In this document: one piece after another, positions 31,079 to 64,000 of the stretch
Position numbering within the stretch: the stretch's first letter is position 1
How the letters are laid out: each line of letters begins with the position of its first letter
Assembly: GCA_014729775.1 (NCBI GenBank)
Contig: WJJJ01000021.1
Coordinates: 24,788 to 88,787, forward strand
DNA from: Candidatus Omnitrophota bacterium
GTDB taxonomy: Bacteria; Omnitrophota; Gorgyraeia; Duberdicusellales; 4484-171
Reading direction: 5' to 3'
Length of the DNA stretch: 64,000 bases
The notes under the pieces: generated by a model
The model's database searches: none
Told to the model about the DNA's origin: nothing
Seen by the model: only the letters and a program-made list of their open reading frames with translations
Made by a program: the position numbers and the translations under genes

Positions 31079-31089
31079 GATCGTAGGTA

Positions 31090-34247: not shown

Positions 34248-34427
34248 ATGATACCTTCCTTTTTTATTCAATGAAACCATATTATACCTGATTGGATGGG
34301 GAAAATAAAGGGAATGGGTGAGCTCTTTTATCCGGGACGATAGAGCCTTCCCAGACGGCGCGCGTTAAGCCGATCCGGCTCCTGGGCTGGGACTTTTCGC
34401 TCCGCACGCAATATTCGCGCAGAACCC

Positions 34428-37400
34428 TCATCGTTTTCTTTTTCTGGATCTTCCGGACCTGCTTTTCCGCTTTTTCGCCGATAATGCCGGTTGATCCGGA
34501 CGGTCGCGTTGATGCCCTTTCTGCGCGGAAGAGAATCGCGCTCTCAGCGTCCGTTTCAAGAACAAACCGGCACAATACGCGCCGAAGAGTACCGCGCCTG
34601 TCTGCAGGACCAGAGCAAAGGTACTCTGAGGACGAACAGAGACGCCCAGACGTTCAAGCGCTCTGGCGACTTCTTCGCTGGCAGCGCCGTTATCCGGAGA
34701 ATAAAGGATCGCCTTCTCGTAATCGTTTCTGGATTTCTTTTTCTGACCGAGAGCGGCATAAGTCAGACTGCGATGAAAGTACAGCTGGGCATCTGCGGGC
34801 GCGATGGAAAGAGCTTGGTCAAACAGAGCAAGCGCGCGCCCGTAGTGTCCAAGCTCACGAAGGATAACAGCCCGGCACCGCAACCCTTCAAGTGAGCGCG
34901 CGTAAACGGTATCATATTCGCACGCCCGTTCATGATCAGCCAGCGCCGCTGGCAGGTCTTCCTCGACCAGATAATAGTAGCCGGCGCGAAGCACATAAGC
35001 CTGTGCTGAATAGGGATTCATCTCCAGCGCCTTATTGATATCGCTGATCGCCAGATCGTACCGCCCGGACTTACAGCGGACTTGAGCACGGTCAACCAGT
35101 ATCTGGTCATTAAGGGTGTCATGTTCAAGCGCGGCGTCGAAAAGCGCTATGGCCCGCTTGAAGGCGGACGGCCCTCCGTCCGCCAGGACCCGTTTCGCGT
35201 ATGACTGCAGACTCAGGCTCACCAGGGTCCTTTGACCCCCGAGACGAGCCATCCGGTAAAAACGCGCGAAGGGCGCATCATTACGCACCCGCAGATGATT
35301 TGCTTCCTGAAAAAAGAACTCCTCGAAATCAAAGTTCGCTTGAGCAACGCCGGTACCGGCCGCCGCATCGCAGTAGGAAAATCTTCGCGCTCCCTTTACG
35401 AGAACGGCGACATGGGAAATATCAAACGCCTCCTGATCGGCGCCGCCGGCCCTTCGCTGGGTATGTTCGTAGAGCTCTATTGGCACCGCTTTTATTTTAA
35501 GTGTTCGCAGAAGGTAATACAGCAAGATATTCATGCTTACACAATTACCGGTCTTCTCGAAGGCGAGCGCGCGCAGGCTGAACACACCAATGTCATAGCG
35601 GTATTTCTCCCTGATTGCTCCGGCGATCTCGCTGGCCGTCCTGAACACATCTTCTTCGACCCTATGCTGCCGTGACTGCGCCTGCCATATCCGCAGCATT
35701 GACCGGCCCTGCGCGTCTTTCCAGTCCGCCACGTCAGCCGCTATTCTCTCGGCCACTTCCCGGGGACGCCGGTCGCCGGCCGCCCGGCAATGCCAGTGAA
35801 TGCCGGCCTGCAGTGCCTGCGCCACAGATGTCTGCCCGTCACCCGCGGCAAAAGAAGACGGCGCCAACGCCAGCAGCGCCAACATTCCGGTTGTCGCCGA
35901 AAGGAAATACCTGCGCGAAGCCGTCTTCTCCCGCACACTGCCTCCCGGTGCTCCAGCGGGAGCGCGCATAGTTACGGGAGGGTGTACCGCCGAGGAAGCA
36001 GCAGGATTCACCTCGCAGTCGGCGGCCGGATAGACCATCATATAACGGTATCCCTGCAGTCGCAAAACCGATAATTCCCGAACCAGTGGCGTTCCGTGAT
36101 GTGAATCGATCACTTTCGCCTGCCAACGCCCGTTCCGGCATTTTAATCCCGGCACAAAATACGACTTATATGCCTGCGCAGCGATGAGCGCGGCATCTCC
36201 GTCCAGGACCGAACTGAACTGCTGCTGCCAAAACCGGTGATCGATCACCTCCCGTCCCAGAAGGATCTCCATTTTCCTCGGCCGGGCCAGCCGGCTCACC
36301 ACCGGCTGACTTATGCGGAGAAATCCATTCTCATCCAGGGTAAGATCACCCAATGCGTCCAACTCACACAGAATATCTTCTTCGGTTTCATTCCGGTATA
36401 CCTGCCGGTGCGGCAAAATCACCTGCCAGAAACTGAACGCGTGGATCAATGACCGCAGAAGACAGCCTTCAACCCGGGGATAATGGCTGTAAGGTTGGCC
36501 GGTGTACGTTTGTTTCGCCCATCCGTTGACCGGGGTGATATCATAATATTTTGTTTTGAAATCCACTGCCCCGGGAGCGCTTGCGGATTTCGATCCGCCT
36601 CCCTGTCCCTCTCGGAACAAATCTTTTCCCTGCGGGCGAAAGATGTGCGTGTCTTCCGGGAGACGAGTTTCTTTATTGAGATTTTGTTCGGACACACGCA
36701 CTATCCATTCGGGGATATCGGTTGTCACGTCTGTATCCGCCGCATTGATCCGCGGACGGCCTTGGAACAGAAAAGGCAAACGCAGCCCTGATACTAATTT
36801 TGGAGAAGCCGTGTACACCGTGCCGGCACACCCTTGCGCCGTGTACATAAATCCCTTCTGTAAGCGGATGACGGTACCCGGAGCAAGCACCTCCCGGCGG
36901 GAACGGCTCACCTGATAGGTATGATTTTCCAGATAGGTCACACTCACCGTATCCACCTGATTATACGTATGCGGATGCCGGATATTCAACGCGGGAGAAA
37001 CCGGTTCACTCAACCAGCGCGGGTCATCGGTCGAGAAAGGTTCCTGTTCGAAAGGGGTCACGTCCTCCGCGAAAAATTTACGGAATACATGAGCATTATG
37101 GATAAAAGGAGTGGATACCTTTACATTCCTGATACGCAGCATACGCGCCCATTTCACGATCCAGGACAACACGGCCTGACTGATCCCAAGATTAAGATAG
37201 CGGCGGTCCTGGGGAGTGCGCCAGACAGTACCGATAGGATAGTATTGCGTTATCTCCAGAGAACGATCAGCATACACCGCAGCCACTACCCGGCGCCGTC
37301 GTTCCGCTTCACCGTTAATCACGGTACGCGCGGTCAACGTCATCACCGGCCACTCAGAATTCCCGTACTTTGGAGTGGTCATGACAATTGACAAACCGAC

Positions 37401-40400
37401 TCCCGGACGCTCTCCCTCCGGTTCTACAAGAGGGATCTCATTATCCGTATCCGCCGGAGATGATGAAGCCTGATCCGTTACGGACCGCGGCGGGGCCTCT
37501 TGCCTTCTGACACGACGCAACCACGCATCAATCCAGTAGATCAGGATCCCCGACCAGAGAATTCCCATATTCGCAGCGATTAACACAATGTATTCAGGGA
37601 AAAACGCCCAGCCCAGAGACAGCCCGCTCGCCCAGAATACCCCGTTACCCGCGTAAAGACGGAGGAAATCCTTCACGGTTTCTTTAAATTCAATATCCGA
37701 CCGATCTTTCCGCACCAGATATTTATGGATGGCAAAATTCGCGGGCAGTCCCACTACCGCTGCGAAAAGCGTGATATCAAGAAACACCTTCCAGAACACG
37801 CCGGGAACAAACGCGGTAAGGAACCCGTACCATGCCCCGAATACGACTATTCCCACGTATAGTCCCCCGAACAGGCTCCAGCGGCCGATCGCCGGCCAGT
37901 CTATCCGTTCGCCCCTGACGGTCTGGTTCATGTACATACCGCACCCCCGGGACACCCCTCCGACCACCGTCTTGATCCCAAGCGCGGCATAAAACCCGGA
38001 CTGAACCGCCGCAATATACCAATGACCGAAAAAGACCGAAAGCAAAACCGCTACGGCCGGGATCCCGGCAAGCACCCCCCACCGGAGATAGCGGCGCATA
38101 CGCGCCGTGAACTGGGCCTGTCGAGTGAACTTCTCCTCGGCCGGACTCGAAACACTCCCGTTTCCACTGGAATGATGAGAATCGTTGACCTCCGCATTTC
38201 TCTCCCGCTGACGCTGCCGGGCACGATCCGTGATCGCCAGCGTCGCGCAGCGCTTAAGCAACGTCACGTCAGTGGCAAAACACAGTTCGGTACGATACCC
38301 GTTGCGCCCGTATAACAACCCGATAAGCCCGCCCTGCAGGTCGAACACCGGCGCTCCGCTAAATCCTTTTTCGGCCCCTTGCGCTTCGATAATCAGCATT
38401 GCCGTCGGTTCCACCCGCCGCGCCGTGCCCCGGATCAACTGGAAGTTGCGGTAATTCGCATGCGGCGCTCCCGGTATGACTACCGGTACCCCTTCATGCT
38501 GTGAGGCGATTGGAAACGTACGGCGGGAATAAGAGGCAAACCGCCGCAAAGGAGTAAAAACATTCTCGGGATAACTGGCTTTCCGTATCCGCAATAATCC
38601 TATGTCAGGATATTTCTGGCTGGCCGTGACTTCACCCCACAACCGCCCTCTGTCGTTTTTCACCAATAATCGAGAAAGTTCGGAATAAAGCACATGAGCG
38701 GCACTGGCAACATAGTAAAAATCGCTGTCTTCATCGAATATAAAACCCGTGCCTCCGCCGAACCATGTGGTCTCATCCTCTCCATGCGTATGTCTCACGA
38801 CAACAGGTTTGCGGACGACCACAAGATTCTCGGCGATGAGTCTCAGCCGTTCATCGGAAATATGATGAAGCTTTTGGGAACTATACGCGGACAATCTCTC
38901 ATAGAGAAAACCGTCGCCCCCCTGCCGACGGCCGCGGGTGCCGCGTTCCCTGCCCGCAGGAGAACCGGCCGCGGTGCCAAACTGTGCATTCGCCGGACGT
39001 CCGTTTGTCACCCGGTAAATATCGCACGTAGAGCAATAACTTACCATGCAATGGTACTTCTCCACCCCCATGACCGGATCCGGCACCGGTAACCCAAAAT
39101 GGTACCGGCCGCCGCTTCTCAATATCTCCTCTACTATATCCACAGGAACGCCGGAAACCGGATCACGCGCTACCTCTTCCCGATTCCACAATATCGCTAC
39201 GCCGCCGGGAAAAAGGAGATACGCAAGTCCCTTCGCCAAACGGCGCAACGAGATCTTGCCCACGTCGCCGTCCCAACATGACTCAAAGGTAGCGCCGCCC
39301 AACTTTCTCTCTTTCAAATATTCATAGACAAAAAACCGCAAATTTCGGCTTTCTGCCACAGCCTCCGGGATCTCGCCGGGCAGCACGTAAGGCATATTCC
39401 AGTTTACAGCGTCAAACCGCAATCCGGGAAACCGGGACTCGCCGTCCGGAGAAACGATATTGTCGGCGATCATCGCCTTGATCTCAAACCCGACGAGCTT
39501 CGCCGTATAGCGGGCGTTTGCGATCTCCATGGGATTGATACCGAGAGTATATTGTGTTTGTCCCGTTTTCAAATACATCAGCCAAAGCTCAAGCCCGGTC
39601 CCCGGACCGACCGTCAACACCCTGCTGCCGCGATGTATCCTTTTCTCCTCCCACAACATCCGATAATATTCCTGGTCCGCGTCGCTGTTTAACGACGGTG
39701 AATATACGGTGGGATATACGGGGGTAATAAGAGAATGCACCCGATCGGACTTTGCCTTATCAACGGCTCTGGTGTTCACCACCCACCCATTTCCGCCGAG
39801 CTGAAACAGACCATCCGTTTCCCACGCGCCGGTATCGCGGTCAATGCGGGCGACCACATACGGCAGCTGGCCATTACCCGGCCGTATCTCGCGGACCCCC
39901 TCCCGCAGCTTCGCGGTCGAGAAATCCTGAATAAATTCCGAATTACCCCGAGCTTCCTCCAGGAACGCTTCACAATGCTGAATTAAACCGGGATCATGAA
40001 GCTCCGGTATAGTAAAATAAAAATAACTCAGGTTCAGATATCTGGGATGTATTTCATCCAGTTTATCCATGCTTTGCAAAATATCCGAAGGAATCACCGG
40101 AAAAACCGCGACAAGCCGTCCTTGCTGATTATATAAAAGATCCACTTCTTCCAGAACGAATGCGTAAGGAACTACCAAAATATGCTTCAACACCTCTTGC
40201 CCCACACAGGCTCCCGCCGGCGAATCATGACTATCCGGCAGACGGACGCGCCGGTACCCGATCCCTTCGCGATGATGCGCCGCATTTCGCAACCCTAAGA
40301 AAAATAACAGGTCTGCCGCGACTGCCTCGCGAGCGGCGCTCTCCTGCGCACCGGATGAGTTGCGAAGATCGCTATCGGACTCCCCCGTTTCTCCCACATA

Positions 40401-43400
40401 ATACTCCTGACCGCAAAATCTTCGCTTAAACGGCGCGAATTTACTCATTCCTGCCGGCAGCAGACTCATTGATCCGAACCAAGGCGACCGATATGCGTGC
40501 CAGAGGCGGTAATTCTCCCGATTTGGTTTCAGCATCACCGCCCCGCTCTGTCCCCGTTTCCGGCGGCGCAGCACCACATTGAGACCCGGCCCGGATATCG
40601 ATACGTCTGTCACCTCGAACTGCTCCTCCAGCACGTCGAACGCCTTCGTGATTTTCAACCGGTTCCCGTCCAAATGATCGGCCCTCACCCCTCCGCGGAG
40701 GAACGTATACACCACACGCTCGACCGGCTCCTGCAGGGCATCCGCGACCGCGCGCACAAGACAATTCCTCCTAAGCTCAAACGGCACCCTTCCTGCTCCG
40801 CCGCGGGAAACGAGATACAATCCCGCTGAATACCGGATCTTTATGACAAAACGTCCCGTAGCGCGGCAGGCCGCGGCAAAAATTTGCCGTTCAGGCCTAT
40901 ATTCCTGAGGAACCGCGGCAATGCCCTGCTGAACCGCAATCGAGTATAACTGATGGAAAAACCCGCGATCGAACAATATCCTTTTTTGTTCGGCCTCGCG
41001 TAAAAGTTGCGCTAATTCCCGGGGATGATGAGAATAATATTCTTCACTGAAACAGCACGCCTTTTCATGTCCGGTACCAACCGCATAGCACGGACACACA
41101 CGGCCGGCCCCTGCCTCCCGGCGGCGCCTGTTTACCTCGCGATCCTGAGCAAGATGACGGAGCTCTAATTCTTCATGACGGTGCACATCGGCGAGTATTT
41201 CACTGCCGGGGTCCCTTCGAATCAATTCAAGCACTTGCCAGTGCACGGTGAAGAGAAGCCGTTTCACACTGTAATCAATCGAAACAAGCGGCGCGTATTT
41301 GTAAGGAACTACCCGCACCTCAATCGCTTCCGCCGGGGGCGCGTGGGGAAGAAGTCCTTCCAATAATTCTTTCACATATTCCTTGGCAAAATACCTGCCG
41401 AAAAACTGCCCTGGCAATGCTCCTTGAACACGGAAATCGCGGCGATCACTGTTTTTCGCGAATGTGACCGGCGGCTTCAAACTCCGCTTCCCGGCACACG
41501 CGGCGTAACAAATTCGTCCCGCGCGGGAAAAAGGCTCTCTTTCTGTGAGGGGACTGGAGCCGCCCCGGTGACGGAAAAGATCAGTGAACTGAAGGGTAGT
41601 GAGCTGATGCGGACGCTTTCCAAAATATTCGTATCCGGCGCTCTCCAGCACATAGCTATTTCGCGCAGTCCGGAAATGAGGAAGGCCCAACCGGCTCTTC
41701 GCGTGTGACCGCAGCACATATACCATCCCTCTGAGGTTATAAAACCGGTTTCCCCTGTCGGGAATATCAGAAGAAATGCTCACTGCGCCTGCCCCGCTTA
41801 TGGAAACAAACACATTACTTAACATTACGCCGTATGCGGCAAGGCCGCCGTACACGCCGTAATGAATCGCGCCGATATACACCGGCCGGTTCTCCCGCGG
41901 CATGATCTGCGTGACCCCGTCCTCGAGAGTACAAGTCTGGAACGCGATTCGGTCCGACAACTGCCGCGTACGCGGATGATGCGCGATATACCCGGAAACC
42001 GGCAGCCGATCCACGCCAACAAGATTACCGTTCAAAAATTCAAGCAGATTGGTTCTCCCACTGGATAACGCATCGGCAAAAAACCCCTCCACGTCGGGAC
42101 ACACGGGGCTGCGCAAAGTGAACATATCTTCCTTATCTTCCCGGTATGCTCCCGGAAACATAGATGAATGCCCGCAGCGCCGGAAAAAATTCGAAATCAA
42201 ATACTCAGTATGAAAAAACCTTGTTCGCGACCACGAATCTGGGTGAAGCGGATAAAACCGTTCCCGGCTCAAATAATTTTCCGCGGCCGCGATGATTTCC
42301 CGTCTGAGCGGGATATCCTGATTTTTTATTCTCATCAAAACCTGCAACGCGCTTCTCCGCACTCGAGCAGAAAACGGCCGCCTGGTGGCCGACAGCAGCG
42401 CTCTGATTACTTCCGGATTCATCCGGTCCTCATCACTTAAAGAAGTTAAAGCCATCCACACTTGATGAGAATGGCCCGGAACCGGATCCGTCAAAATTCG
42501 CACTGCTTTATGTTCGGGAACACGTCCATCCCGGGGAATAGCGCTGTCCGGATATATGGGACCGGGAGAGGAGCTGGTTCCGCTCTCTGACGATACCCGT
42601 TCAGGATTCAATCCTTTGCTTTCCGCGATCTCTCTCAAGGCCGACTCCGCCGGGCCCTTAATCTGGCGAATGCGTTCTCTGGTAACTCCAACTCTTTCTC
42701 CCGCCGCCTGCAGCGTCAGCACTTCTGCATCCTCCCCGATCGCAACCCGGATACGACTGATTACAGATAACTCGCATACCTGCAAATCACGCTCGGGATC
42801 CTTCCGGTTCCGGAATATCTCGCGCAAACGCGCCCGCAGCTCTTTAATAATCTCCCGGCCTAAGGCGTGGACACCCCGAACCTCTTCCTCAGTATCGGGT
42901 TTCGCCTCAAGGTCTTGCAGGACGGTATGACGGTCATCGAAATCCTGCCCTCCCCCGGGCTGATCCAATGAAACCGCGCCTCTGTGCCGGACCAGGTAAC
43001 TGTCGATTTGCTGCACAGGCACCCCGGTTACCTCGGAAATCTCTGCCGGGGACAACAGCCCGGTGGAAAGCTCTATATTATGCTCCCGGCACAGGTTTCT
43101 TAGTTTCCTGTCTTTTTCCTGCTGAGACGTAGGAGTCCGTACTATATGTTTCTGTCCCTGGATTTCCCGGGTAATCACTTGGCGGATCCACCAGCTCGCA
43201 TAGGTCGAAAATTTGTATCCGGTTTGGAATTCATAACGCGGAATTGCTCGGTATAAACCGATATTCCCCACACTGATCAATTCCATCAACGTAAACGGAT
43301 GACGAAGATACTTTTTTGCAAATTTTACTACGAGGCGGAGATTGGAATTCCATGCCTCGGTATGAGACTGCCTGTTCACCCGGCGTTCCTCGGTCCTGTT

Positions 43401-55400: not shown

Positions 55401-58400
55401 GCGGAAAAAATCACCAAACGTACGGTATCCCGCCATACCGGCCAAGCCGTCAACGATCTCCATAAAAGGTATTATTCTGAAATACCCCTCCATCTCGTCG
55501 AACACCGCACAGAGCTCCCGGGCATACGTAAGAGACACATCGAGCACCCGGCCGGCATCCCTGCCCCGGTATTCCAGGCTGAATCCTGATTCCACCTTGT
55601 ATTTTCTAAGAACATCCACAACGCGGTTCACCAACGCTTCAACGCTTCGAAAATGATGATTTTCAGCCAGGAACGGATACTCCTGCTTTTTAAGATCAAC
55701 CTGCAGCGGTAAGCTGTTTATTGCCTGGAGACCGTCGGAAAAGAAATGGATCGTGAGCGCAAAAAACGCCGTCCACAGTAATGATTCACTCCGCGTTCCC
55801 CGGGTAAGCAGCTGCGGAGCGTGCGCGATAATTTCTTCTTTCTGGAATTGATCAAAAATCCCGGGGGCACCGACCGCACCCGTTTCGTCAAACAAGTTAT
55901 CCGCGATTTGTGTGATTTCATCGTGAACGGGAGAAGATACTGAAAGATCTTGGGAACTGCGCTTGACCTCCTGCAGATCACGAATTACCGCTCCCATATC
56001 CGGATACCGTTGTTGGCGCGGTTGAAGACAGCGCAAGGCAATAGCGTACGCCGCGCCAAAATTCTCGTCCGCGAGCTGCTCCTGCCGCTGCAGGGCGGCC
56101 CGGATCCGCAGCAAGGCGGCAACCGCGTTGTCCCGCATCATATATTCCAATATCTCCCGCGGCTCCAGAATGACGGCCAGCACCATCCCGAAACTGTACA
56201 CATCCCACTGCTCCGTAAACAGCCGGGTTGAAGCTTCTAACGCGCCGGTGCGTTTCGCTTCACGACGACCGAAGGCCCAAGGTTCATAGCTCTCGCAATA
56301 AATATCGGTATGGATGGTGCGCACGATTTCCGGAATGCGGCCGGAATTTTCCACCCAGTCGTAACGCAGCGGTACCGCGCTGTCCTGATCCACAAGGCAC
56401 ACCGTTTCCCGCAAATTTTCATCAAGCCGCATCCGGATATTTGTCGGTTTTAATTCCTTCACCAGAAGCCCCCGGCGGTGACACTTTTCTACCGCATCCG
56501 CGACCGCCAGCGCGAGCCGCAATTTATGCCTCTCATCACGAGCCAATTGAGGCACCCATCTTTCCATCGCCAGCAAATCGCCCAAATTCACGGAAGGAAC
56601 AAAATCCATGATCAGATACGGGAATTCCCTCCGCCAAAAACGGGGCGCGAGAATTTGTCCTCCTTTTAACTTACACCATCCCTTCCCGTAATAATGCGGG
56701 ATCACGCTCTCTTCGGTCAGAGTTTCGTAATGCCGGGACAGCCATATCACGTAATTAATAATCCGTCTGCGTTCTCTCAAAGAAAGCACATCATTCCGCG
56801 GTCCGTTACAATACACTTTCACCGCGTAGGGCCCATGCGCTTTATCTTTCGCGCTGACTTTATATACACGGGCGTAACTCCCTGCACCTACTATTTCCTG
56901 GGTACGCTGATCAAGGTCGTTCATTGTAACTCGCGGGCTGCCCGCATTATCTGATACGGGAGAGGACCCGCTCAGACGTCCAAGGCGCCGGACCGTATTA
57001 TCAAATATATGACCGATATGTAGGGTGAGCCCGGGGATCTTTAGTTCTTCCTGCACTTTTTCAACCGCCCGTTGTTTGGCTGTTTGCACCGCATGGGGAT
57101 CAAGCCTCTGTATCACAAACGCCTCTTTCAAATACCCGGGCACGATGGTCCTGAGAGTAAATAACTGTTCTATCTCAAGCTGACGCAGCGTCCTTTCATT
57201 CTGTATCTCCTCTTCCCATATCACACCTAACGGAAAATCAGATAATAGAGACACCACCACCGACCGCACACCGCCGTAAGCCCCAAACATCTTGATTGCG
57301 CCCTCTCTGTGAGAATCCCATTGCGCGTATTCCTCCAATACGCCTGCCGTATCTGCATGTATCACCGCTCGGATGCCGGCAGCATCTGTCCTGTACCGAG
57401 GGCTCATCACGATCGCCCCCCTTACTCGCGGGGTCTCTTGTAACACCGCATCAATAAAGCGTTCCAGAACACCTGAATCATCTTCGGTCAGCAATGACGG
57501 GATATCTTTCCTTGAAAAAACGCGCGGCCGGGCGTACTGAACCGTCTCCTTTCCGGACATCAGCGCGCTTTTCTTTTTGGAAAAAAACAGTGCGCGGATA
57601 TGCAAAGGTGCCGCGTACGCGCTGCTCATGTGGCCGCGCTCATGAAGTAATGTATCCAACCGCGGGTAATGACCTATGCCGCGAATGACAATCACGTAAT
57701 CTCCGGGATACGCACCAAGATAGGTATCAATGTCGTCCGCCAACGCTTCGTCTCTCAATCGAAGCGCATCCTGGTTTTGCCATCCGGAAAGGTGCCGTTT
57801 CCAAAAATTCACCGCTTCCATATCATCTAAATCGATTTCTCTTTCTTTAAGAAGCGTCAGCAGATTGCGCAGCTGACCCAACGTAAGCGCCAGATCCGGA
57901 GCTTCCTCCTCGATACGGATAGTACGCCCGCGTGAGATCTGTGCCCACAGATACCGGTTACGGGCAAGCGCGTAAGGAGTAAACGAGTATACCGGTTCTT
58001 CGCGGGGCCGTTCTTCGGCGTTGAGCACCTCACGCAGACCCTGCAGATGATTTGAGGTCTCCCGGTCGATGACCGCCATAATGTTTCGGGCAACCTGCTC
58101 ATCTACGGTATCTTGTCGATCCAGTTGGCGCAGGGCTTCTCTGAATAGTGCGGCGTCAAGCTTCTCTACATAGGTATATCCCCATTCAAGGAAAAACGCC
58201 ACCCGCCGTTTTTCTCGTTCCGCACGCGCAAGTACCGTTTCGGCCGCGGAGACCCTGAGGTCAAAGTCAAATCCCTGGGCATGATACCCGTAAAGAGAAA
58301 ACACCCGTGTCTGTCCGGTGATCGAACTTCTAAACCGTGCAAGCATCGGGTCGGCGGCCGGTCCATTGTGTGAAAGCACCGCATCTTCGCCGAATACATC

Positions 58401-61400
58401 CGCGGGAAAGAATCCGCTCATCATCCCGCTCAACATCAAAGATACGAATACTCGCCTGTCCGTTGACACCGCTGAAGATGCCCGGAAAGGAAAATATGGC
58501 CGCGGTTTGGTATATACCGGCTGCAGCAGGCGAGACGGCCCCACCAGCCACGGAGAGGTAACCGCACTCAGTCCGTGCTGCAACCGGTGAAAATATTCTA
58601 ATAAAGGCGAGCTGCTTTGCGGAGCATCGCCATCGCGTAAATTTTTTATTTCTTGCCGTAACGCTCTTAATTCGTCGGCGATATCATCAAAGACCTCTTC
58701 CGCCTGACGCTCACCGCTGTCCAGCGCGATGAACAATTCTTCTAGCGCATCTATACGACCCTGCAGGAAACTCGCGCTTCTTTCCGGAATACGCGGCGAC
58801 ACCGCGGACCGGGTGTGTATCTCATTTTCCCGTTGCGCTAACTGAGCGGAGAGGCCGGCGAGCCGGACTCCCTCAGCCTTGATATCCCGGGCGCGTTCTT
58901 CGAGTTTTCTCTGTTCAGCGGCAAGCGTCCGCTCGCGCAAAGATAATACGTCTTCCTGCCGCTTACGCCCCGCCGCCCAGTCGGCGCGCGTCTGTTCAAT
59001 CTGTCTCTTACGCGCGTCCAATGCCGCCTGTTGTTCAGCCAGGACACGGCGGTCTGAATCAATCCTGCCGCGCTCTTCTTGAATCCACTCACCTGCCTGT
59101 TCCTGTTCGTCCTCAAACCGCCCCCGGGCGGTCTCCAGCCTTGCCTTTTGACGCTGAAGTATCCGTTCCCAGCGTGATAGTCTTATTTCCTTGCTTTCCG
59201 CTTCCTGTTTCCTCCCGGCTAATTTTTGTTCCCGGACGGCTACGGCACGTTCTTTCTCATCGAGTTTTCGCTGTTGACGCGTGAAACGCTGTTCCCATTC
59301 TCTCAGAGATGCGTCCTTTTCCTCCTGTTCCTGCCGCGCCTGTAGTTTCTGCTCATCCAATCGTTCCTGTTCCTGGGCGATATTTCGCCGCTGCTGCGCG
59401 CACTGTTCTTGGATCTTCTTCAGCTCGGCACGGGCTCTGTCGATCTTTTCCCGCAGCCGGACAAGTTCACGTTCAGCCTCATCGGCCTCTCTTACACGCT
59501 CACCCATCTCCCGACGCTGACGTTCAAGGATCTGCTGTTGCCGCGCGAGGTCCGCTTCCCGCCGCGTGAGCTCTTCTTCCCGCACAGCGATCTGTTCCCG
59601 GGCTTCATCGACGGACTGTTGCTGGTATTTGGTCAGTGCGCACTGCGCACGCATCCAGAACATTCGCAGACGAACTACGCCTTTTTGGAATACCGGTTTT
59701 ACCCGGGAGGGCCGCTGCCGCGCCCGCAGTGCAGCCCGACGTTGTTTTTTCTTCTCTTTTCTGTTCCGTTTTCGCGCCGCTCGCCTCTGCTCCCGTAACC
59801 CGCCCCTCTGCCGCAGAGACGGCGCATCATTACTTTCTTCTTCGGTATCCGGTACGATCTCGGCACGCCGGTTCCAAAACAGCCCGTATGAGAGAATGAT
59901 GACCGCTGCCGAAGCAAACACCCGCAGGACGATGGAATACCCGGCCTCATCATAAGCCGGATTGATCCCTACATAATACGTAATGAACACCACCGCCGAT
60001 CCGGCCAACGCGGCGATCCAAAAAGGATGAGGCCATCCGGGAGCATGCACGGAGGGAACTTCATCCCGGTTGCCTTTCTCCCCGGATCTGCGCGGACGGG
60101 CCGGGGAAGATACCGGCATGCCCGACATATCAGGACCCGCTTCATTCCTCCCGCTCGGCCCGGAGATTGCCGCCGACGACGAAGATTGTGCCGTCAGTAA
60201 ATGCCGGTAGTCATCCAATTCCGAAAAGGGAAGCACTCCCGGGATTTCCTCAACCGGTGTCATCGCGCAATCCATCCACCCCATCATAAGGCTCAGGTAG
60301 CGGAGAGAAATATCCCGAGAAAGAAGGGTGTAGTGTTCTTTTTTCAATCCCAGTAAAAGCAGCGTTTCATACGGTTTTTTCTTGTGGGGGAACACAAAGA
60401 AATCACGCTCGACGACAGGGCGGGCGGCATTGGTGAGATTGTAGCGGCGCTCATGGGCAGAAACATCAACTATTTCAACCCCTTGTTCCTCAAGAAACCG
60501 CCTGTATTCGGCATTTTTTTGCGCTTCGAGCTCTCCCCGGTAGAGAGGATCGGAGAGAATCGCCGGCTTCATATTCTGCCGGACATGAGCCGGCACGTAC
60601 AGCAGCACTCCATCGATATGCCCGTTTTCGACAAGGAATTCATACGGGTACGAGTCCCCTTCAAAAGAAACGGGCACCTGCGCGCTTATCCAGCCCGCGG
60701 GGAACCGGTATGTCTCAAGACGCTCATATCCTTCTTTGGTTCTCAAATAAGAACGCAGCTGATTCACCGCTTCCGCTGATACTGAATCGGAAAAAATGAC
60801 AAACGGCGTCAGCCCTACCCCTGAAACGGCTGCGCCTTCCGCAATGAGATCTTCTTCAGGGGACGAATCCTGCGCGCCGGAACGGAACCGGGACACTCCC
60901 GTAAGATAACGGTACGGACGTTGCGGAATGAGCGGAAGCCATAACCGGGAATCTTTAAACCATACAGTCCGGTCTTCCCACGGCAGATGTAATGAGAAAA
61001 CGTGACGGGGATGTCCGCTCACCGAGAGACGGGAAACAAAACGTGAAACACCGTCCAGTTCACTGTTAATGTCCCTTGCGCCTAAATCAAGGAAACTTCC
61101 CGAAAAATCGACCGCTTTTGAAGCGAGTTTACCCGGCACAAAGTGCTTCTGCCCGGAGCCGGAAAAATACTCAAGAACTCCTTCTGTGCGCCACCGGCCG
61201 CTTTCCTCCCCCATTATCCGCGAGGCGCGCCGGGTACCCGCAGGAGTCTGGAGTTCGCGCACAAACTCGGCGACCCCGCGCATCTGCTGTGCCAGATATA
61301 TTTCCCGCTCTCCTAATCCCGCGAGGATCTCTTCGTCAGAAGGAGCCGCCCTGCCCTGATGACGACGCACCTGCGCCCTTGCGAACGCATCCTCCGCTTC

Positions 61401-64000
61401 ACGCACGCGTGCGACCACCGCCTGTTCCCGGCCGTTATAAAAGATCTGCGTGGCGACGTTCATAAGCACCTGCTCATCGGCAAGCTGCGCCCCGAAATCT
61501 GCCGCTCCTTCAATAGTGGATTTGACCATATCGATCAGATTTTCGTACCTTTCAACATTCAAGCCTATTCCGAGTCCCGGATCCGCAACCTTGCGACCTT
61601 CGCTACGTGCCGCAAGGATATCTTCGGACACATAAAGATCAAAAGGAGTATCCCTCGATACTTCCACGAAGAGGTATTCATCCGCCGCTAACCGAGTGGA
61701 CTCGATATGCCTCGAAGGAGAAGAACTGCTCCCCGGAGAACCGTTCACTCCGTATGCGAAACCCTCAGCCGTCCGGACCGGACCGACAGCCGTGAAATTT
61801 TCCGGGAGATTGAGACCGGTTCCCGCCGTGATCCCGGCGGGAACCGCAGAGGAAACCGGTGACGATACGGTATTTTGCGCTGAGAGAATACGGCGTGTGC
61901 CCGCACTTCCGGAACCGTCCGGGGAAAAGGAGAACGCGGCCCAGGAATTCGGCGGCAAGCTTATCCTGATATTCCCTTCCCCAGATTCCAGAGTAACATC
62001 ATCGCGGGAACAGAATGCGAAGTTATCCGTATTCGGCGCAGGGTAACCACGGTGAGAAAATGAGGAACTTAATGCCTCCGGATCAATAACCGCCTCTTCC
62101 GTATGCGCTCCCCGGTGGTTTATGACGGCCACACCTATCTCGTCCTGATACACACGCACCAACGGAACAAGGGAAGAGCGGTGCAAAGATTCCGGTTTCT
62201 TCAGATGCAGAGCGGAAAAATCTCCCCGGCGGAACACCGGACGGGAAATAAACTTAATCAGAGACTCAAATTCCCGGTCTGCTGCTTCCGGTTCGGCAAT
62301 TACGTCGGGATACCGGTACCGGTAAATGCCCGCATCGGGAGATTTCATCGAGATATGACAGATTCCTTCTGGATGGTTTTGTGTGGCAGTCAGCGGATAT
62401 CCCATGCCGAACAGCTGACGCAGGGTCACCAGCACATAGCCCGGCAGAGCAAAGCTTAACAGAGAAGCGCCTAGCGCGTACTCGCCGAATCCCCGGGGAT
62501 CACGGAAAGGCTCTTCATCATGGTTCTCCGTAAAATGCAGACCGAGGTCAAGATATCCGCGCGGCGCGCGGTAAAAAATATAGTCCCGCACCGCAGGCGC
62601 GCCTTGACCTTTCACAATATCGTACAGCCGTTTATCATAGGGAATGATCCCTGCACGCTGGAAAAATCCGGTGCGGCCGTCCCACGGCACATGCCATTTG
62701 TCGCCCGCTTCATAACTTTCGGCAAACGCGAGCATACCGCTCCCGGCGATTTCATCCATCACCTCTTCCCAGAACTCATGCGGCATGCGCTCCTCAAACT
62801 CCTTCCACGATAATCCCAGCGGATATCCCCAGGTCGCCCAGAATTGCAGACGAAGCGCGTAAAACGCGAGGTCGGCGCGGAATCCTCCGCCGCAGGTAAG
62901 TCTGCGGATATTTCCGGAAATCACATTCTTCATGTACCGGCGCGCCGACGGCAAAAGATAATCTACCTGTGCCAGGTTAGGCATATGGGCTTCTCCCGGT
63001 CCGTACCAGGCATTCTTCACTATCGTACGGTATGCGTTCGGATATACATAATGACGACTTTTGCGAAAGAAGGCACGCGCATACAGATTTTTCTTTCTAA
63101 GACTATCCAAAAATTCCCGGCGTGTCATATGCGGCCAGAACCTGTCGAGCCGCCGGGCCACTGTTAACGCGTCATCAACCGAATCCCACTGCATCGCGAC
63201 CCCGCCGCGCTGCACGATAAGCGAATCAGCGGCTACGTGATTGACGACAAAATCAAGCAGAGTGCGCATACCATACCGCTCCCGCAGCCTGCGCGCGGAG
63301 TTCATGAATTCTTTTTCTGATCCCAGACAAGTATCCAGCGTATAATCGTACACATCATAGGCTGACGCCCACCGAAAAAGAGTTTCATGGTCTGTCCTTT
63401 GCCAATGACGCATCATCCGCGCGGAAAGAGGACTCTTGCGCCACGCGCCCTTAATCCAGACCACCCTTATTCCCAGCCCCGCGATCCATTCCCAGAATTC
63501 TTCCGGAACGTTGCCTATCGTTCCGTAGGTAGCGGACAACGCGCGGGCGTCGATCTCCAGCACAACGGAAGTATCCGCCGGCGAACTCCCCTTCCCGAAT
63601 ACGATACTCTCGACCGTGTTTTTCTGCTCATTGACTTCCTCAACAGCATGTAAAAACTCTTCTCCTTTCATTTCCCTGTTACGTAAGAATGCGGTCATAC
63701 ACATATGGGGCCGAGTATGCTTCGGATCCATAATACTGACACTGATAACGCCTTCCTCAAGAGAAAACACGACGTCGCTCGAAATACCGGCATTATCCAC
63801 TCTTCGGTAGGAAAGGACCTCCATGTCAGGGTAAAGTTCCAGCGGTGACAGAATCAGCCCGTTTCTCTTTCTTGTTTTACTCACATCCACCCCGAATCCG
63901 GAAAAAACTGCGTATTTTTTGTGTATCCATCTTAAAACACGCTGAGCCTGCTCTCCGATCATTTCTCCCTGCGGACGGCGTATAGAAGCAATATCCAAAG
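34428..64000 (-). CDS. Giant multidomain protein, at least 9,856 aa, 5'-truncated by the window edge (the ORF is still open at 63998-64000)
   Basis: A single stop-free reading frame of 29.57 kb, which cannot arise by chance at this GC content. Six residue positions checked directly against the nucleotides match the translation. It has many recognisable domains (see the sub-features), a stop TGA at 34428-34430, and a C-terminus of ...[14 protein letters not shown]. Confidence 0.9.
   Translation of the reverse strand, partial: [9856 protein letters not shown]
34431..34622 (-). other. Giant protein: C-terminal TM helix plus a polybasic KR tail
   Basis: [21 protein letters not shown] followed by ...[17 protein letters not shown] and the stop. 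Confidence 0.5.
34629..35201 (-). other. Giant protein: TPR repeat region (residues ~9600-9790)
   Basis: At least 4 TPR-like 34-aa units (e.g. [50 protein letters not shown]). Confidence 0.6.
35319..35681 (-). other. Giant protein: transglutaminase-like cysteine protease core (residues ~9440-9560)
   Basis: Cys motif [19 protein letters not shown] (verified on the nucleotides) with a downstream His (DISHVAVLV) and Asp (SYCD). Confidence 0.55.
35841..35936 (-). other. Giant protein: twin-arginine (Tat)-like signal motif embedded internally (residues ~9355-9386)
   Basis: [28 protein letters not shown]. An in-frame ATG (M9344) lies at 35967-35969 but has no obvious SD. Confidence 0.3.
37515..38093 (-). 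other. Giant protein: cluster of about 6-7 predicted TM helices (residues ~8636-8828)
   Basis: Successive about 20-aa hydrophobic runs ([99 protein letters not shown]). Confidence 0.55.
38259..38801 (-). other. Giant protein: trypsin-like (S1/DegP-type) serine protease domain (residues ~8400-8580)
   Basis: His (TGFIFDE...VASAAHVL), Asp (YPDIGLLRI) and Ser ([17 protein letters not shown]) triad motifs are present in the canonical order. Confidence 0.65.
39189..39671 (-). other. Giant protein: class I SAM-dependent methyltransferase-like domain (residues ~8110-8270)
   Basis: Motif I [13 protein letters not shown] was verified on the nucleotides. A second, weaker MTase-like motif ([16 protein letters not shown]) lies at about residue 5900. 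Confidence 0.5.
42624..43646 (-). other. Giant protein: complete sigma-70 family module, regions 1.2, 2, 3 and 4 (residues ~6785-7125)
   Basis: Region 1.2 ([19 protein letters not shown]), region 2 ([41 protein letters not shown]), region 3 (HIVRTP...) and region 4 HTH ([31 protein letters not shown]). Region 2 was verified on the nucleotides at about 43209. Confidence 0.8.
44394..44756 (-). other. Giant protein: GHKL/HATPase_c-like ATPase module no. 2 (residues ~6415-6535), lying about 250 aa N-terminal of the sigma module
   Basis: N-box ([12 protein letters not shown]), G1 ([10 protein letters not shown]) and G2 (GTGLGT) are present. The start was verified on the nucleotides. Confidence 0.55.
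46764..47201 (-). other. Giant protein: degenerate Fic/Doc-like motif region (residues ~5600-5745)
   Basis: [25 protein letters not shown] resembles HPFx(D/E)GNGRxxR, but the catalytic His position is Gln/Leu. Confidence 0.25.
47649..48821 (-). other. Giant protein: GT4/GT-B glycosyltransferase domain (residues ~5060-5450)
   Basis: The N-half ([29 protein letters not shown]) and the C-half EX7E region ([30 protein letters not shown]...ETGLLVE) were verified on the nucleotides. Confidence 0.75.
49119..49451 (-). other. Giant protein: Pol-beta-superfamily nucleotidyltransferase-like motif (residues ~4850-4960)
   Basis: hG[GS]-x9-DhDh pattern: [21 protein letters not shown]. Confidence 0.4.
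50439..50528 (-). other. Giant protein: Lys-rich histone-H1-like tract (residues ~4491-4520)
   Basis: [30 protein letters not shown], encoded by an AAA/AAG-rich run. Confidence 0.6.
50823..50900 (-). other. Giant protein: helix-turn-helix (XRE/Cro-like) motif (residues ~4367-4392)
   Basis: [24 protein letters not shown], verified on the nucleotides. Confidence 0.45.
51594..51986 (-). other. Giant protein: GHKL/HATPase_c-like ATPase module no. 1 (residues ~4005-4135)
   Basis: N-box ([11 protein letters not shown]), G1-like (RIENDNN) and G2 box ([13 protein letters not shown]) are present. Confidence 0.5.
56049..56921 (-). other. Giant protein: Ser/Thr protein-kinase-like domain (residues ~2360-2650)
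   Basis: Gly-rich loop ([12 protein letters not shown]), beta3 Lys (YAVKVY), catalytic-loop-like [17 protein letters not shown] with E in place of the HRD Asp, and DQD in the DFG position. Confidence 0.55.
58809..59636 (-). other. Giant protein: long coiled-coil segment (residues ~1455-1730)
   Basis: About 280 aa dominated by E/R/Q/K/A/L with heptad character (e.g. [55 protein letters not shown]). Confidence 0.65.
59694..60029 (-). other. Giant protein: two predicted TM helices (residues ~1324-1375) followed by a polybasic K/R stretch (~1398-1435)
   Basis: Hydrophobic runs [20 protein letters not shown] and [22 protein letters not shown], followed by [25 protein letters not shown]. Confidence 0.5.
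62319..63551 (-). other. Giant protein domain: GH13 (alpha-amylase family) catalytic domain, residues ~150-560
   Basis: Conserved regions I (LLDFVVNHV), II ([11 protein letters not shown]), III (EEVMDEIAG...AESYE) and IV ([10 protein letters not shown]) are present. FTENHD was verified on the nucleotides at 62517-62534. Confidence 0.7.

Follow-up and report, generated by a model that had tools for sequence, protein, structure and literature searches.

The window, i.e. the entire stretch of 64,000 nucleotides analysed, is occupied from position 34428 to 63998 by a single uninterrupted minus-strand ORF of 9,856 codons plus the stop codon, with no in-frame stops as opposed to 202-442 stops in the other five frames of the same span. 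This ORF encloses the whole of positions 35319-63551, so that the claim of an earlier note that the modules of this interval belong to one polypeptide is borne out. Upstream, no stop codon is met up to the window edge; the N-terminus therefore lies beyond the window, and what is visible is the C-terminal part of a protein of at least 9,856 aa. It consists of about two dozen (~24-28) cassettes of ordinary protein size, with 47-1,136 aa between the SSP tripeptides described below. Most of the cassettes have no Pfam match, each recognisable one is a different and complete enzyme, regulator or membrane protein, and the architecture resembles an operon without stop codons. BLASTP detected no internal paralogy among the cassettes, and a reading as a repeat protein was dropped since the ORF has no real tandem repeats. 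Searches for RNA elements found neither an Rfam family nor a tRNA. Downstream, the ORF is adjoined by an Opp-type ABC transporter operon; with regard to co-transcription of the two, the 147-nt gap contains no convincing terminator or promoter. The neighbour described earlier is thus present, but the scavenging lifestyle that had been linked to it is a matter of adjacency only, and opp does not follow the giant ORF in L016/L017, the one relative with a visible 3′ end.

Table 1. Features of the giant ORF and its downstream neighbour (aa, numbering of the visible part of the ORF).
Feature	aa	Window position	Strand	Basis or remark
Giant ORF, at least 9,856 aa		34428..63998	(-)	stop 34428-34430; open to window edge; frame stop counts
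Opp/Dpp/Nik-type ABC transporter (binding protein, two permeases, two ATPases)		28210..34280	(-)	downstream, context only
GH13-like cassette	138-711	61866..63587	(-)	SSP at both ends; regions I-IV and Asp/Glu/Asp; homologous cassettes in L001, L002, L013, L014
TM hairpin and coiled-coil cassette	1297-1795	58614..60110	(-)	first hydrophobic segment 30 aa past junction
Protein-kinase-like cassette	2345-2687	55938..56966	(-)	Pkinase 32.0 bits vs 31.7; PK_Tyr_Ser-Thr 25.3 vs 23.1
Two 223-aa cassettes	4599-4821, 4822-5044	48867..50204	(-)	G-S...D-x-D-like motif aa 4860-4876 only
GT4 glycosyltransferase cassette	5045-5457	47628..48866	(-)	EX7E aa 5351-5359; ends at variant junction GSP 5458
Cassette with C-terminal HATPase_c-like ATPase	6090-6569	44292..45731	(-)	25.0 bits vs cutoff 26.4
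Sigma-70-family cassette	6570-7142	42573..44291	(-)	regions 2, 3, 4 in correct order
Region claimed as methyltransferase	8100-8300	39099..39701	(-)	VGPGTG 8130-8135, NMPY 8201-8204; no significant match
S1B/S1C-like serine protease cassette	8345-8616	38151..38966	(-)	start AGSP/AGRER, end VSSP; triad His8435, Asp8465, Ser8547
Polytopic membrane cassette	8617-8845	37464..38150	(-)	first TM 23 aa past junction
Tat-like signal, TASRRYFLSATTGMLALLALAPSSFA followed by AG	9359-9386	35841..35924	(-)	by eye; 24 aa past variant SSA 9335
Transglutaminase-like core	9447-9546	35361..35660	(-)	Cys 9486, His 9529, Asp 9544; Transglut_core 19.1 bits vs cutoff 23
TPR repeats	9613-9775	34674..35162	(-)	profile
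C-terminal TM segment, then strongly basic tail	9796-9814 (TM)	34431..34613	(-)	hydropathy
SSP junction	138	63579..63587	(-)	tripeptide count
SSP junction	712	61857..61865	(-)	tripeptide count
SSP junction	759	61716..61724	(-)	tripeptide count
SSP junction	1045	60858..60866	(-)	tripeptide count
SSP junction	1297	60102..60110	(-)	tripeptide count
SSP junction	1796	58605..58613	(-)	tripeptide count
SSP junction	2345	56958..56966	(-)	tripeptide count
SSP junction	2688	55929..55937	(-)	tripeptide count
SSP junction	2898	55299..55307	(-)	tripeptide count
SSP junction	3210	54363..54371	(-)	tripeptide count
SSP junction	3452	53637..53645	(-)	tripeptide count
SSP junction	3698	52899..52907	(-)	tripeptide count
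SSP junction	4599	50196..50204	(-)	tripeptide count
SSP junction	4822	49527..49535	(-)	tripeptide count
SSP junction	5045	48858..48866	(-)	tripeptide count
Variant junction GSP	5458	47619..47627	(-)	end of GT4 fold
SSP junction	5565	47298..47306	(-)	tripeptide count
SSP junction	5788	46629..46637	(-)	tripeptide count
SSP junction	6090	45723..45731	(-)	tripeptide count
SSP junction	6570	44283..44291	(-)	tripeptide count
SSP junction	7143	42564..42572	(-)	tripeptide count
SSP junction	7481	41550..41558	(-)	tripeptide count
Variant junction GSP	8345	38958..38966	(-)	aligns with SSA of P0004 and P0006 at S1 cassette start
SSP junction	8617	38142..38150	(-)	tripeptide count
SSP junction	8846	37455..37463	(-)	tripeptide count
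Variant junction SSA	9335	35988..35996	(-)	before Tat-like signal

With respect to the enzymatic modules, the GH13-like cassette carries region I (DFVVNH, aa 249-254), region II (GGFRADLA, aa 371-378), region III (AFAESYE, aa 424-430) and region IV (FTENHDE, aa 489-495). On alignment, the catalytic Asp of region II and Glu of region III are invariant, the catalytic residues of regions I-III are the same in 4/4 cassettes, and region IV is preserved in the three cassettes that extend far enough, the fourth being a fragment. The Pfam profile Alpha-amylase (PF00128) scores 21.6 bits (cutoff 22) here and 27.0 and 28.9 bits on orthologous cassettes, while the PDB matches span region I only. The closest relatives of the cassette come from two Ca. 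Omnitrophota MAGs (42% and 37% identity), where the nearest ones again sit in giant ORFs, and from an Omnitrophota-labelled fragment. In related giants it is accompanied by hexokinase, PFK, GH77, starch synthase, PRPP synthase and nucleotide kinases, which suggests a role in internal alpha-glucan and sugar metabolism.

The GT4 cassette is recognised by Glycos_transf_1 with 60.7 bits (cutoff 26.4) and matches PimB'/GlgM/MshA in the PDB at E 1e-11, its EX7E motif EGISGVLLE being aligned to EGLGIVYLE. The S1 cassette reaches 46.6 bits with Trypsin_2 (cutoff 27.6) and matches SplF/SplD at E 6e-6 and also HtrA; it is kept in two other giant-type proteins, starts at a junction in 3/3 cases, and its catalytic triad aligns in order and is conserved in all three cassettes. 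Profiles or catalytic alignments of the individual domains agree with the earlier description of well-preserved GH13, EX7E and S1 motifs, and the preserved residues argue for active enzymes and not for relics. For the transglutaminase-like core, the Cys motif, which had been claimed, and the His and Asp motifs can be read by eye, but Transglut_core remains at 19.1 bits (cutoff 23). Homology searches with the transglutaminase/TPR cassette returned generic TPR proteins alone (~30% query cover), none extending over the transglutaminase-like part and none being a stand-alone homologue with a Tat signal, and a PDB search of that part gave only noise.

Two further enzymatic assignments are not confirmed. 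The methyltransferase is a matter of motifs, with E-values of 0.14 for Methyltransf_23 and 0.89 for PrmC and an unusable AlphaFold single-sequence model (pLDDT 33), and the surrounding cassette (aa 7481-8616) has no match at 1e-5 among 5.8 billion proteins. The nucleotidyltransferase, which had been left unlocated, probably corresponds to the two 223-aa cassettes; the resemblance lies in the motif of the second, neither a Pfam nor a PDB match was obtained at E<=1 to 10, and the model is again unusable (pLDDT 37). A Fic domain considered at aa ~5700 (EGNHRTGA) was dropped as it has no Pfam support.

The sigma-70 factor, the protein-kinase-like and the HATPase modules, as well as the recurrent SSP junction, had been overlooked in the earlier note. 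The sigma-70-family cassette scores 60.6 bits with Sigma70_r2 (cutoff 24), 24.1 with r3 (25.3) and 23.8 with r4 (24.1). The membrane-associated features, on the other hand, had been described correctly: hydropathy peaks at aa 1327-1374, 8640-8822 (several) and 9796-9814, TPR repeats are present, and the first of these peaks is a TM hairpin followed by a coiled coil of ~300 aa (aa 1436-1764; 299 aa, proline-free and heptad-periodic). From aa ~1375 to ~8640, hydropathy reveals no strong TM-like segment outside the recognised globular modules. The only strong hydrophobic segments there, at aa 3126 and 5709, follow the nearest junction at distances of 131 and 144 aa, have no accompanying TM cluster and are read as buried helices. 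An export-type signal is found only on the last cassette (transglutaminase-like and TPR), the Tat-like segment having no match to the Tat signal model TIGR01409. Since the sigma-70 factor, the kinase-like and HATPase modules and the nucleotide-sugar-requiring GT4 between aa ~1375 and ~8640 point to cytoplasm-type functions, and no strong TM-like segments separate them, the bulk of the giant protein looks cytoplasmic and not like the surface or secreted attack machine suggested before.

SSP is the top tripeptide outlier of the giant ORF, occurring 23 times as compared to 2.2 expected (P 4e-16), in all cases between modules, whereas it is found near expectation in the other five reading frames and twice (1.5 expected) in the remaining 33 ORFs of the window. 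Codon choice varies among the 23 sites, which are written in 20 combinations with both AGY and TCN serines, and this indicates selection at the peptide level; together with the counts in the other frames this led us to reject an origin at the DNA level. In the Omnitrophota giants L001 (22 vs 1.2 expected) and L002 (15 vs 1.1) and in the fragment P0006 (7 vs 0.65) the tripeptide is likewise in excess. Of 60 sites taken from the window, L001 and L002, 53 have a small residue at position -1 and 51 an aliphatic one following the proline. The junction has the pattern [S/V/A/G]-S-S-P-[L/I/V/A] with the variants GSP and SSA. In two other giants, SSP is replaced at matching cassette edges by SSA (L013; 12 vs 2.1 expected) and by GCFFGLPMLATT (L014; pattern xGCFFGLPMLATT, with CFFG found 6 times vs 0.01 expected).

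Homology of the GH13-like and S1 cassettes begins 0-5 aa from the junction in both partners while the flanking cassettes are non-homologous, the exception being P0006, where the BLAST match begins 24 aa in. In a sample that is small (five giant ORFs and two fragments), the junction thus marks the exact edges of cassettes shuffled between giants. Junctions interrupt none of the 31 domains that Pfam maps in five giants, and many of these domains are tightly bracketed, e.g. hexokinase at 102-540 within 87-548 and the GT4 fold, which ends at GSP 5458. Moreover, TM or signal segments first appear 23-33 aa past junctions (aa 1297, 8617 and 9335), as do 6/12 hydrophobic clusters in L001 and L002 compared to ~15% expected by our own estimate. 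Junction flanks are more polar and more disorder-prone than random positions. As SSA also occurs once within the GH13-like cassette of L013 (aa 1929), the tripeptide alone is insufficient, and chance probably accounts for several of the SSA and GSP tripeptides in the window. Conversely, two SSP-free stretches of 901 and 1,136 aa each comprise more than one unit, so that variant junctions must be invoked. Conserved junction motifs are found at the edges of all the presumed mature units, as in a polyprotein.

Because its closest relatives are giant ORFs of Candidatus Omnitrophota MAGs, the ORF can, by homology, be assigned to the published class of 'Archaeovorin' or multi-enzyme giant proteins. 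The type of this class is a 39,678-aa ORF of Ca. Velamenicoccus archaeovorus LiM (10.1101/2023.11.21.568195; Kizina et al. 2022, cited in PMC10066038), and Omnitrophota commonly carry giant genes, with lengths of 10,000 to nearly 150,000 codons. Features in common with Archaeovorin are the great length of a single ORF within a small genome that is otherwise ordinary, a mixture of modules (glycosyltransferase, glycoside hydrolase, peptidase and TPR), many unannotated stretches and scattered TM helices. Its domain set is recovered in part, with GT4, GH13-like, S1 and TPR modules found, a methyltransferase only at E 0.14, and neither NUDIX nor HEAT at a significant level in the visible 9,856 aa; the N-terminal C39/S8 peptidase and SecA-DEAD-like domains are likewise not seen in these residues, the N-terminal part lying outside the window. 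The 'multi-enzyme metabolic cluster' class (10.64898/2026.06.07.730766) is similar in that many Pfam families tile the polypeptide with none dominant, in its HATPase, GT1 and peptidase content, to which it adds methyltransferases that have a motif-level counterpart here, and in a TM-only topology mostly on the cytoplasmic face, but its description treats the chain as one architecture, with no processing, polyprotein, linker or motif. West-Roberts et al. 2023 (10.1101/2023.11.21.568195), who report giants of >30,000 aa, proposed cleavage and stated that the cleavage points were unknown. In published predictions based on TM segments, most domains of giant proteins come to lie outside the cell, but the authors themselves call these predictions unreliable. 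Neither SSP nor a polyprotein appears in the two Omnitrophota preprints, and in contrast to the ORF described here no junction motif is reported in the Archaeovorin papers; the new point is therefore the SSP junction tripeptide, the giant-protein class itself being already published.

We consider the chances about evenly balanced that the region represents the C-terminal at least 9,856 residues of an Omnitrophota-type giant gene for a polyprotein, with lineage-specific junctions as putative cleavage signals, and rate slightly lower the general proposition that Omnitrophota giant genes are true cellular polyproteins cut at SSP, SSA or GCFFGLPMLATT by in-chain proteases. In such a polyprotein, the junction would be a site-specific signal read during or after translation by a protease of the same chain, for which the S1B/HtrA-like cassette would be the best candidate, and the giant product would be released as separate proteins. 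These would comprise cytoplasmic enzymes (the GH13-like alpha-glucan enzyme and GT4), regulators (the sigma-70 factor, the kinase-like and HATPase proteins), membrane proteins bearing their own N-terminal signal-anchors, and a Tat-signal-bearing, C-tail-anchored transglutaminase-like/TPR protein facing the periplasm. Release would be needed because a sigma-70 factor tethered in the chain could hardly work.

Hinges, docking elements or modification sites would explain a conserved junction just as well. Accordingly, the product might be an uncleaved mega-enzyme, one inner-membrane-anchored chain in which SSP and its equivalents are hinges or modification sites between domains; the GT cassettes might O-glycosylate such sites, or the kinase-like ones phosphorylate them, and the enzymes would be co-localised at fixed stoichiometry. 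The polar, disorder-prone flanks, the GT4 and kinase-like cassettes and the depiction of membrane-anchored chains with their bulk on the cytoplasmic face (10.64898/2026.06.07.730766) agree with this. However, a generic hinge need neither be an exact tripeptide with fixed flanks nor give way to a 12-residue hydrophobic motif in another lineage, and a tethered sigma factor as well as signal-anchor or Tat-like segments just past junctions fit a single chain poorly, so that we regard it as rather unlikely, if still the foremost competitor of the polyprotein. Considerably less probable is an extracellular machine in which the modules, displayed on the coiled-coil stalk, degrade prey polysaccharide, peptidoglycan and protein, and opp imports the products. 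TM anchors, coiled coil and TPR repeats, the hydrolase-type modules (GH13-like, S1, transglutaminase-like), the adjoining transporter and the prey cell-wall degradation proposed in the literature for the class would all suit it. Yet the modules between aa ~1375 and ~8640 require ATP, nucleotide-sugar or RNA polymerase, hydrophobic segments are isolated there, the GH13-like cassette is accompanied elsewhere by glycolytic and nucleotide-metabolism enzymes, Pfam finds no peptidoglycan-active domain in the visible 9,856 aa, and the transporter is not adjacent in L016/L017.

The predatory or epibiotic habit of Omnitrophota would also be compatible with a MARTX-like effector polyprotein, moved into the prey and cut there into effectors that use prey ATP and nucleotide-sugars. 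The shuffled modular cassettes with short junctions recall MARTX effector regions, and kinase-like, GT, S1 and transglutaminase-like proteins are common effector types, but there are no RTX repeats, C80 cysteine protease domain or translocation module in the visible part, and many cassettes here and in the relatives are housekeeping-type metabolic enzymes or, in one case, a sigma factor; we hold this to be very improbable. An assembly or annotation error, or a non-functional run-on of genes, would account for the many cassettes without Pfam match, but is effectively refuted by 9,856 stop-free codons against the numerous stops in other frames, the preserved catalytic motifs, the junction conserved at the peptide level in independent assemblies and the peptides already detected for the V. 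archaeovorus giant protein.

If cleavage were confirmed, the giant genes would provide a cellular parallel to the polyproteins of viruses, and their functional reading would shift from 'extracellular weapon' towards 'stop-codon-free operon'; a way of expressing genes that is familiar elsewhere in viruses and a few toxins would here serve housekeeping-type enzymes, a sigma factor and membrane proteins. Being simple and countable, the junction motif offers a means of dividing giants into units of protein size that can be annotated and submitted to structure prediction, draws attention to candidate processing proteases, and predicts exact neo-termini that can be checked in existing proteomes (PRIDE PXD025008).

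Amongst known systems, MARTX (e.g. Vibrio RtxA1) resembles the ORF as a very large bacterial protein, the central region of which consists of exchangeable effector cassettes in a row with short inter-cassette sites. MARTX effector cassettes are freed by an in-chain protease that cuts these sites, and MARTX toxins have RTX repeats, an InsP6-activated C80 cysteine protease, Leu-specific sites and type I secretion. In contrast, Pfam finds neither RTX repeats nor a C80 domain nor a type I secretion signal in the visible 9,856 aa, and the cassettes are largely metabolic or regulatory. In viral polyproteins (picornavirus 3C, potyvirus NIa, nidovirus 3CL), the product of one ORF is processed into many mature proteins by a chymotrypsin-fold protease. 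The likeness to these extends to short lineage-specific junction motifs and to a PA-clan protease that is itself a junction-flanked cassette. However, cleavage is only predicted here, the giant ORF is a cellular chromosomal gene among housekeeping genes, and its S1 cassette is nearest to bacterial Spl/HtrA proteases and not to viral ones.

The 35319-63551 stretch that the earlier note had read as mixed enzyme modules in one polypeptide lies wholly within a single uninterrupted open frame on the minus strand (34428-63998; 9,856 sense codons, stop at 34428-34430), which stays open to the window edge, so that the true start lies outside it and the protein has at least 9,856 aa; 202-442 stops occur in each of the other five reading frames. 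The flagged architecture is real, but it is of a known kind, since giant ORFs are a published hallmark of Omnitrophota, described since 2022-2023: an ORF of 39,678 aa is quoted for Ca. Velamenicoccus archaeovorus (Kizina et al. 2022, as cited in PMC10066038), the 'Archaeovorin' class comprises glycosyltransferases, glycoside hydrolases, peptidases, methylases, TPR/HEAT and even glycolytic enzymes (10.1101/2023.11.21.568195), and a 2026 preprint, whose corpus comprises 3,650 proteins of >=10 kaa, describes a 'multi-enzyme metabolic cluster' class (10.64898/2026.06.07.730766). With residues 1-711 as query against one genome per species, the best matches were two Candidatus Omnitrophota MAGs (L001 and L002; 42% and 37% identity), in each of which one open frame (7,151 and 6,843 codons) fills the whole 21 kb retrieved and runs off both ends. 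Two further all-open loci, L013 and L014, came from a metagenome scan, and one more relative, the Omnitrophota-labelled fragment P0001, from the protein database.

Complete, unrelated and exchangeable units (cassettes) follow one another in the giant ORF without stop codons, joined by a short, selected and lineage-specific junction, in the window the tripeptide SSP and its variants GSP and SSA. SSP is the most over-represented tripeptide of the giant protein (23 observed vs. 2.2 expected from composition, Poisson P 4e-16), a count that never rose above 11 in two thousand residue shuffles. Counts are close to expectation in the two off-frames of the coding strand (3 and 4) and the three opposite-strand frames (15 vs. 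16.8, 8 vs. 8.8 and 1 vs. 2.5), and the window's other 33 ORFs (11,188 aa) hold 2 vs. 1.5 expected. Twenty different codon combinations, with AGY and TCN serine codons mixed, encode the 23 sites, so that selection acts at the peptide level. In L001 (22 vs. 1.2, P 2e-20) and L002 (15 vs. 1.1, P 2e-12), too, no tripeptide stands out more than SSP, and it is enriched in the database fragment P0006 (7 vs. 0.65). Over 60 sites from the window, L001 and L002 the consensus is [S/V/A/G]-S-S-P-[L/I/V/A], position -1 being small in 53 and the residue after proline aliphatic in 51, with no conservation further out. The intervals from one SSP to the next have the size of proteins (47-1,136 aa). Some junctions come in pairs or lie close together (see the table), in L001 likewise at 18-55 aa, leaving very short 'spacer' peptides between cassettes.

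By BLASTP, the GH13-like unit is the only one common to the window protein and L001, L002, L013 or L014; its alignments begin 0-5 residues from a junction in both partners and end just before the next, and the units neighbouring it are unrelated. The motif at its start varies by lineage: SSA is enriched in L013 (12 vs. 2.1 expected) and CFFG in L014 (6 vs. 0.01), there as part of a 12-residue motif in six copies. Moreover, of 31 domains mapped with Pfam in five giants, not one has a junction inside it, and many are closely enclosed by junctions, while the GT4 fold, mapped on PimB', stops at about aa 5454, with a GSP at aa 5458. The L014 motif (hydrophobic x-[AS]-G-C-F-F-G-[LIF]-[PS]-[ML]-[LV]-x-T-T; aa 412-1838, locus nt ~1235-5520) has a lipobox-like [AS]-G-C core, but without a preceding hydrophobic region, and no copy occurs in the fragment's last 2,500 aa. 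A PFK cassette lies immediately upstream of the GH13-like cassette in P0001 and L013 (aa 1189-2192), two independent giants, so that some cassette pairs travel together; the window unit at this place is unrelated to PFK.

Coordinates of cassettes, domains and junctions (aa of the respective protein; window nt where stated)
Feature	Protein	Position	Junctions or remarks
GH13-like cassette start	window		G-SSP-ADTSVVLEID
GH13-like cassette start	L001		A-SSP-VTNSTKIILEID
GH13-like cassette start	L002		V-SSP-LQNKTKIILEID
GH13-like cassette start	L013		A-SSA-QQTKVILEID
GH13-like cassette start	L014		S-GCFFGLPMLATT-NEANPTKIILEID
GH13 regions I-IV	window	249-254, 371-378, 424-430, 489-495	
Hexokinase		102-540	bracketed by 87-548
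PFK		1209-1482	bracketed by 1189-1594
Amino-acid kinase		5324-5579	bracketed by 5280-5602
RNHCP		5609-5696	bracketed by 5602-5714
Kinase-like domain	window	2367-2675	bracketed by 2345-2688
Protein-kinase-like unit	window	2345-2687 (nt 55938-56966)	
HATPase_c-like unit	window	6090-6569	
Sigma-70-family unit	window	6570-7142	regions 2, 3 and 4, full
GT4 EX7E	window	5351-5359	EGISGVLLE
S1 cassette	window	8345-8616	His8435, Asp8465, Ser8547
Close junctions	window	SSP 712, SSA 716, GSP 753, SSP 759 (nt 61725-61865)	
Close junctions	window	SSP 2345, GSP 2353 (nt 56934-56966)	
TM hairpin	window	1327-1374	hydropathy
Polytopic block	window	8640-8822	hydropathy
C-terminal TM	window	9796-9814	hydropathy

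The modules were checked by Pfam scans, first of each half of the protein and then of 24 pieces, about fifteen of which had no match, and by comparison of key pieces with solved structures. The S1 triad and the GT4 EX7E region named in the earlier note were both borne out. The S1 cassette matches Trypsin_2 (46.6 bits), S. aureus SplF/SplD (E 6e-6) and, with a profile, the HtrA family, its nearest folds being S1B (Spl) and S1C (HtrA) proteases, with the triad aligned; the GT4 unit matches Glycos_transf_1 (60.7 bits) and, in the PDB, its closest relatives PimB', GlgM and MshA-type enzymes (E ~1e-11), with EX7E aligned to the PimB' motif. The reported GH13 identity is convincing by alignment and marginal by profile: Alpha-amylase scores 21.6 bits vs. 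a cutoff of 22, which orthologues pass, and PDB matches cover region I only, but regions I-IV are recognisable, the catalytic Asp (region II) and Glu (region III) do not vary among the four orthologous cassettes, and the three that extend to region IV all retain it. The TPR repeats are solidly assigned by profile, hydropathy locates the TM anchors, and the coiled-coil stalk of about 280 aa corresponds to a 299-aa segment, the longest of the protein to lack proline, which is rich in Arg, Glu, Ala and Gln and shows autocorrelation maxima of hydrophobicity at lags 7 and 14. The transglutaminase-like module is weakly assigned: Cys9486, His9529 and Asp9544 can be picked out by eye, and the profile stays below cutoff (19.1 vs. 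23 bits). The methyltransferase (E 0.14; PrmC E 0.89) and the nucleotidyltransferase (no match in Pfam or PDB) come down to short motifs, and for neither region did single-sequence AlphaFold prediction give a usable model (pLDDT 33 and 37). Conversely, the sigma-70-family, protein-kinase-like and HATPase_c-like units had gone unlisted. By eye, the kinase-like cassette has a VAIK-type Lys in YAVKVY, a DFG-like Asp in LVDQDS and a catalytic loop VKELKPTN vs. the expected HRDLKPxN, a possible Asp-to-Glu change. Residues ~4370-4520 (window 50487-50900) show weak HTH_Tnp_1_2, HTH_23 and HTH_29 matches followed by a poly-Lys basic tract, KKKTVKKKKAKKEAVSKKTTRKKK, and may form a DNA- or RNA-binding cassette.

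The suggestion of a surface or secreted machine attacking polysaccharide and peptidoglycan fits poorly with these contents. Hydropathy reveals no strong TM-like segment outside recognised globular modules between aa ~1375 and ~8640, where the sigma-70, kinase-like, HATPase and GT4 units lie; RNA polymerase, ATP and nucleotide-sugars, with which these units would work as partners or substrates, are cytoplasmic. No peptidoglycan-active domain was detected in the visible giant protein. In relatives, the GH13-like cassette is accompanied by hexokinase, PFK, GH77 amylomaltase, CBM48-type esterase, GT5 starch synthase, PRPP synthase, cytidylate and adenylate kinases, amino-acid kinase, nitroreductase and a sigma-54 activator; together with the kinship of the GT4 unit, these companions make the carbohydrate modules look like internal alpha-glucan and sugar metabolism rather than weapons against prey walls. 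This agrees with the topology of the 2026 preprint, 'bulk on the cytoplasmic face' (10.64898/2026.06.07.730766), and runs counter to the extracellular reading of the earlier note and of West-Roberts et al., who yet call their own topology predictions unreliable (10.1101/2023.11.21.568195).

Hydrophobic segments tend to follow junctions. In the window the first segments of the membrane regions lie 30 aa past SSP 1297, 23 past SSP 8617 and 33 past SSA 9335, and the strongest TM segments of L001 and L002 lie 18-56 aa past junctions; over these three proteins, 6 of 12 hydrophobic clusters fall within 60 aa downstream of a junction vs. ~15% expected (binomial P ~0.005, our estimate). The segment after SSA 9335 reads TASRRYFLSATTGMLALLALAPSSFA followed by AG and fits the twin-arginine consensus, (S/T)-R-R-x-F-L, with an h-region and A-x-A site thereafter; as the TIGR01409 model gave no match here, the Tat-like signal is a reading by eye. 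With a TM segment and a very basic tail at its end, the last cassette has the layout of a Tat-exported, C-tail-anchored protein.

Taken as a processing signal, the junction would make the product a polyprotein, a reading to which we give an even chance. It is favoured because the junction behaves like the protease recognition sites of viral polyproteins and MARTX toxins, with an exact motif, fixed flanks and wholesale lineage replacement, rather than like a generic linker, because a sigma factor, like targeting signals of N-terminal type, is meaningful only when its unit is free, and because a PA-clan protease is itself a conserved, junction-flanked cassette. The main rival, an uncleaved membrane-anchored mega-enzyme whose junctions are hinges or modification sites, we regard as rather unlikely; compared with random positions, junction flanks show a modest rise in polarity and disorder propensity, whereas the free-unit signals and the exactness of the motif speak for the polyprotein. 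The junction code appears to be previously unreported: the terms 'SSP', 'polyprotein' and 'linker' are absent from West-Roberts et al. (10.1101/2023.11.21.568195) and the 2026 preprint (10.64898/2026.06.07.730766), and in the literature searched no paper combines 'polyprotein' with 'Omnitrophota'. Lack of cleavage-point information stopped West-Roberts et al. from splitting giant proteins (10.1101/2023.11.21.568195). The code offers a practical parsing rule, and existing proteomes, such as those of V. archaeovorus LiM (PRIDE PXD025008), would allow a direct test of whether the product is one chain or many proteins.

The S1 cassette is the best candidate for the enzyme responsible for processing, although we consider this role more unlikely than likely. 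S1B enzymes are known to recognise only a narrow range of sequences. An exhaustive HMMER search with aa 8345-8616 against 1.84 billion representatives returned only 14 proteins, the first- and third-ranked being long giant-type proteins. The unit begins at a junction in the window (AGSP-AGRER) and in the database proteins P0004 (ASSA-GRER) and P0006 (ASSA-GQVN), which validates GSP 8345 as a real junction, and all three keep the triad. In the ENA loci carrying P0004 (L016 1-17834 and L017; ERZ24794671/2), the cassette sits within five consecutive large ORFs (852+, 2,472, 1,585, 614 and 408 aa) with gaps of only 2-21 nt, each with a signal-peptide-like N-terminus (MKK...hydrophobic), most ending in ...I-[DN]-[SC]-A-A-stop (exceptions are the first and last) and with S-A-G / S-S-A sites inside; this string may be an 'operon version' of the cassette string.

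With regard to the surroundings, scans of window 1-64000 found no tRNA and no Rfam family; G + C is 49-59%, and DNA repetitiveness amounts to one trivial tandem repeat, with no internal paralogy by BLASTP. With every long gene on the minus strand and a negative GC skew along its whole length, the window lies on one replichore arm. The oppABCDF neighbour is indeed there, the five genes downstream of the giant ORF encoding an Opp/Dpp/Nik-type ABC transporter, but the proposed link to it is weakened, as opp does not follow the giant in the only relative with a visible 3' end; the operon appears to be no more than the transcription unit that comes next in a run of housekeeping genes (lysS, lolCDE, ilvE, clpC/mcsB, mla, radA, ispDF, cysS). 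In its permease region (29993-32055), the predicted second permease ORF (420 aa, TTG start) overlaps the first by 166 nt, and since only residues ~185-415 match OppC-type models, its start is probably further downstream. At 19821-23426, 11 kb downstream of the giant gene, a McsB-type protein arginine kinase lies beside a ClpB/ClpC-type AAA+ chaperone, a protein quality-control pair.
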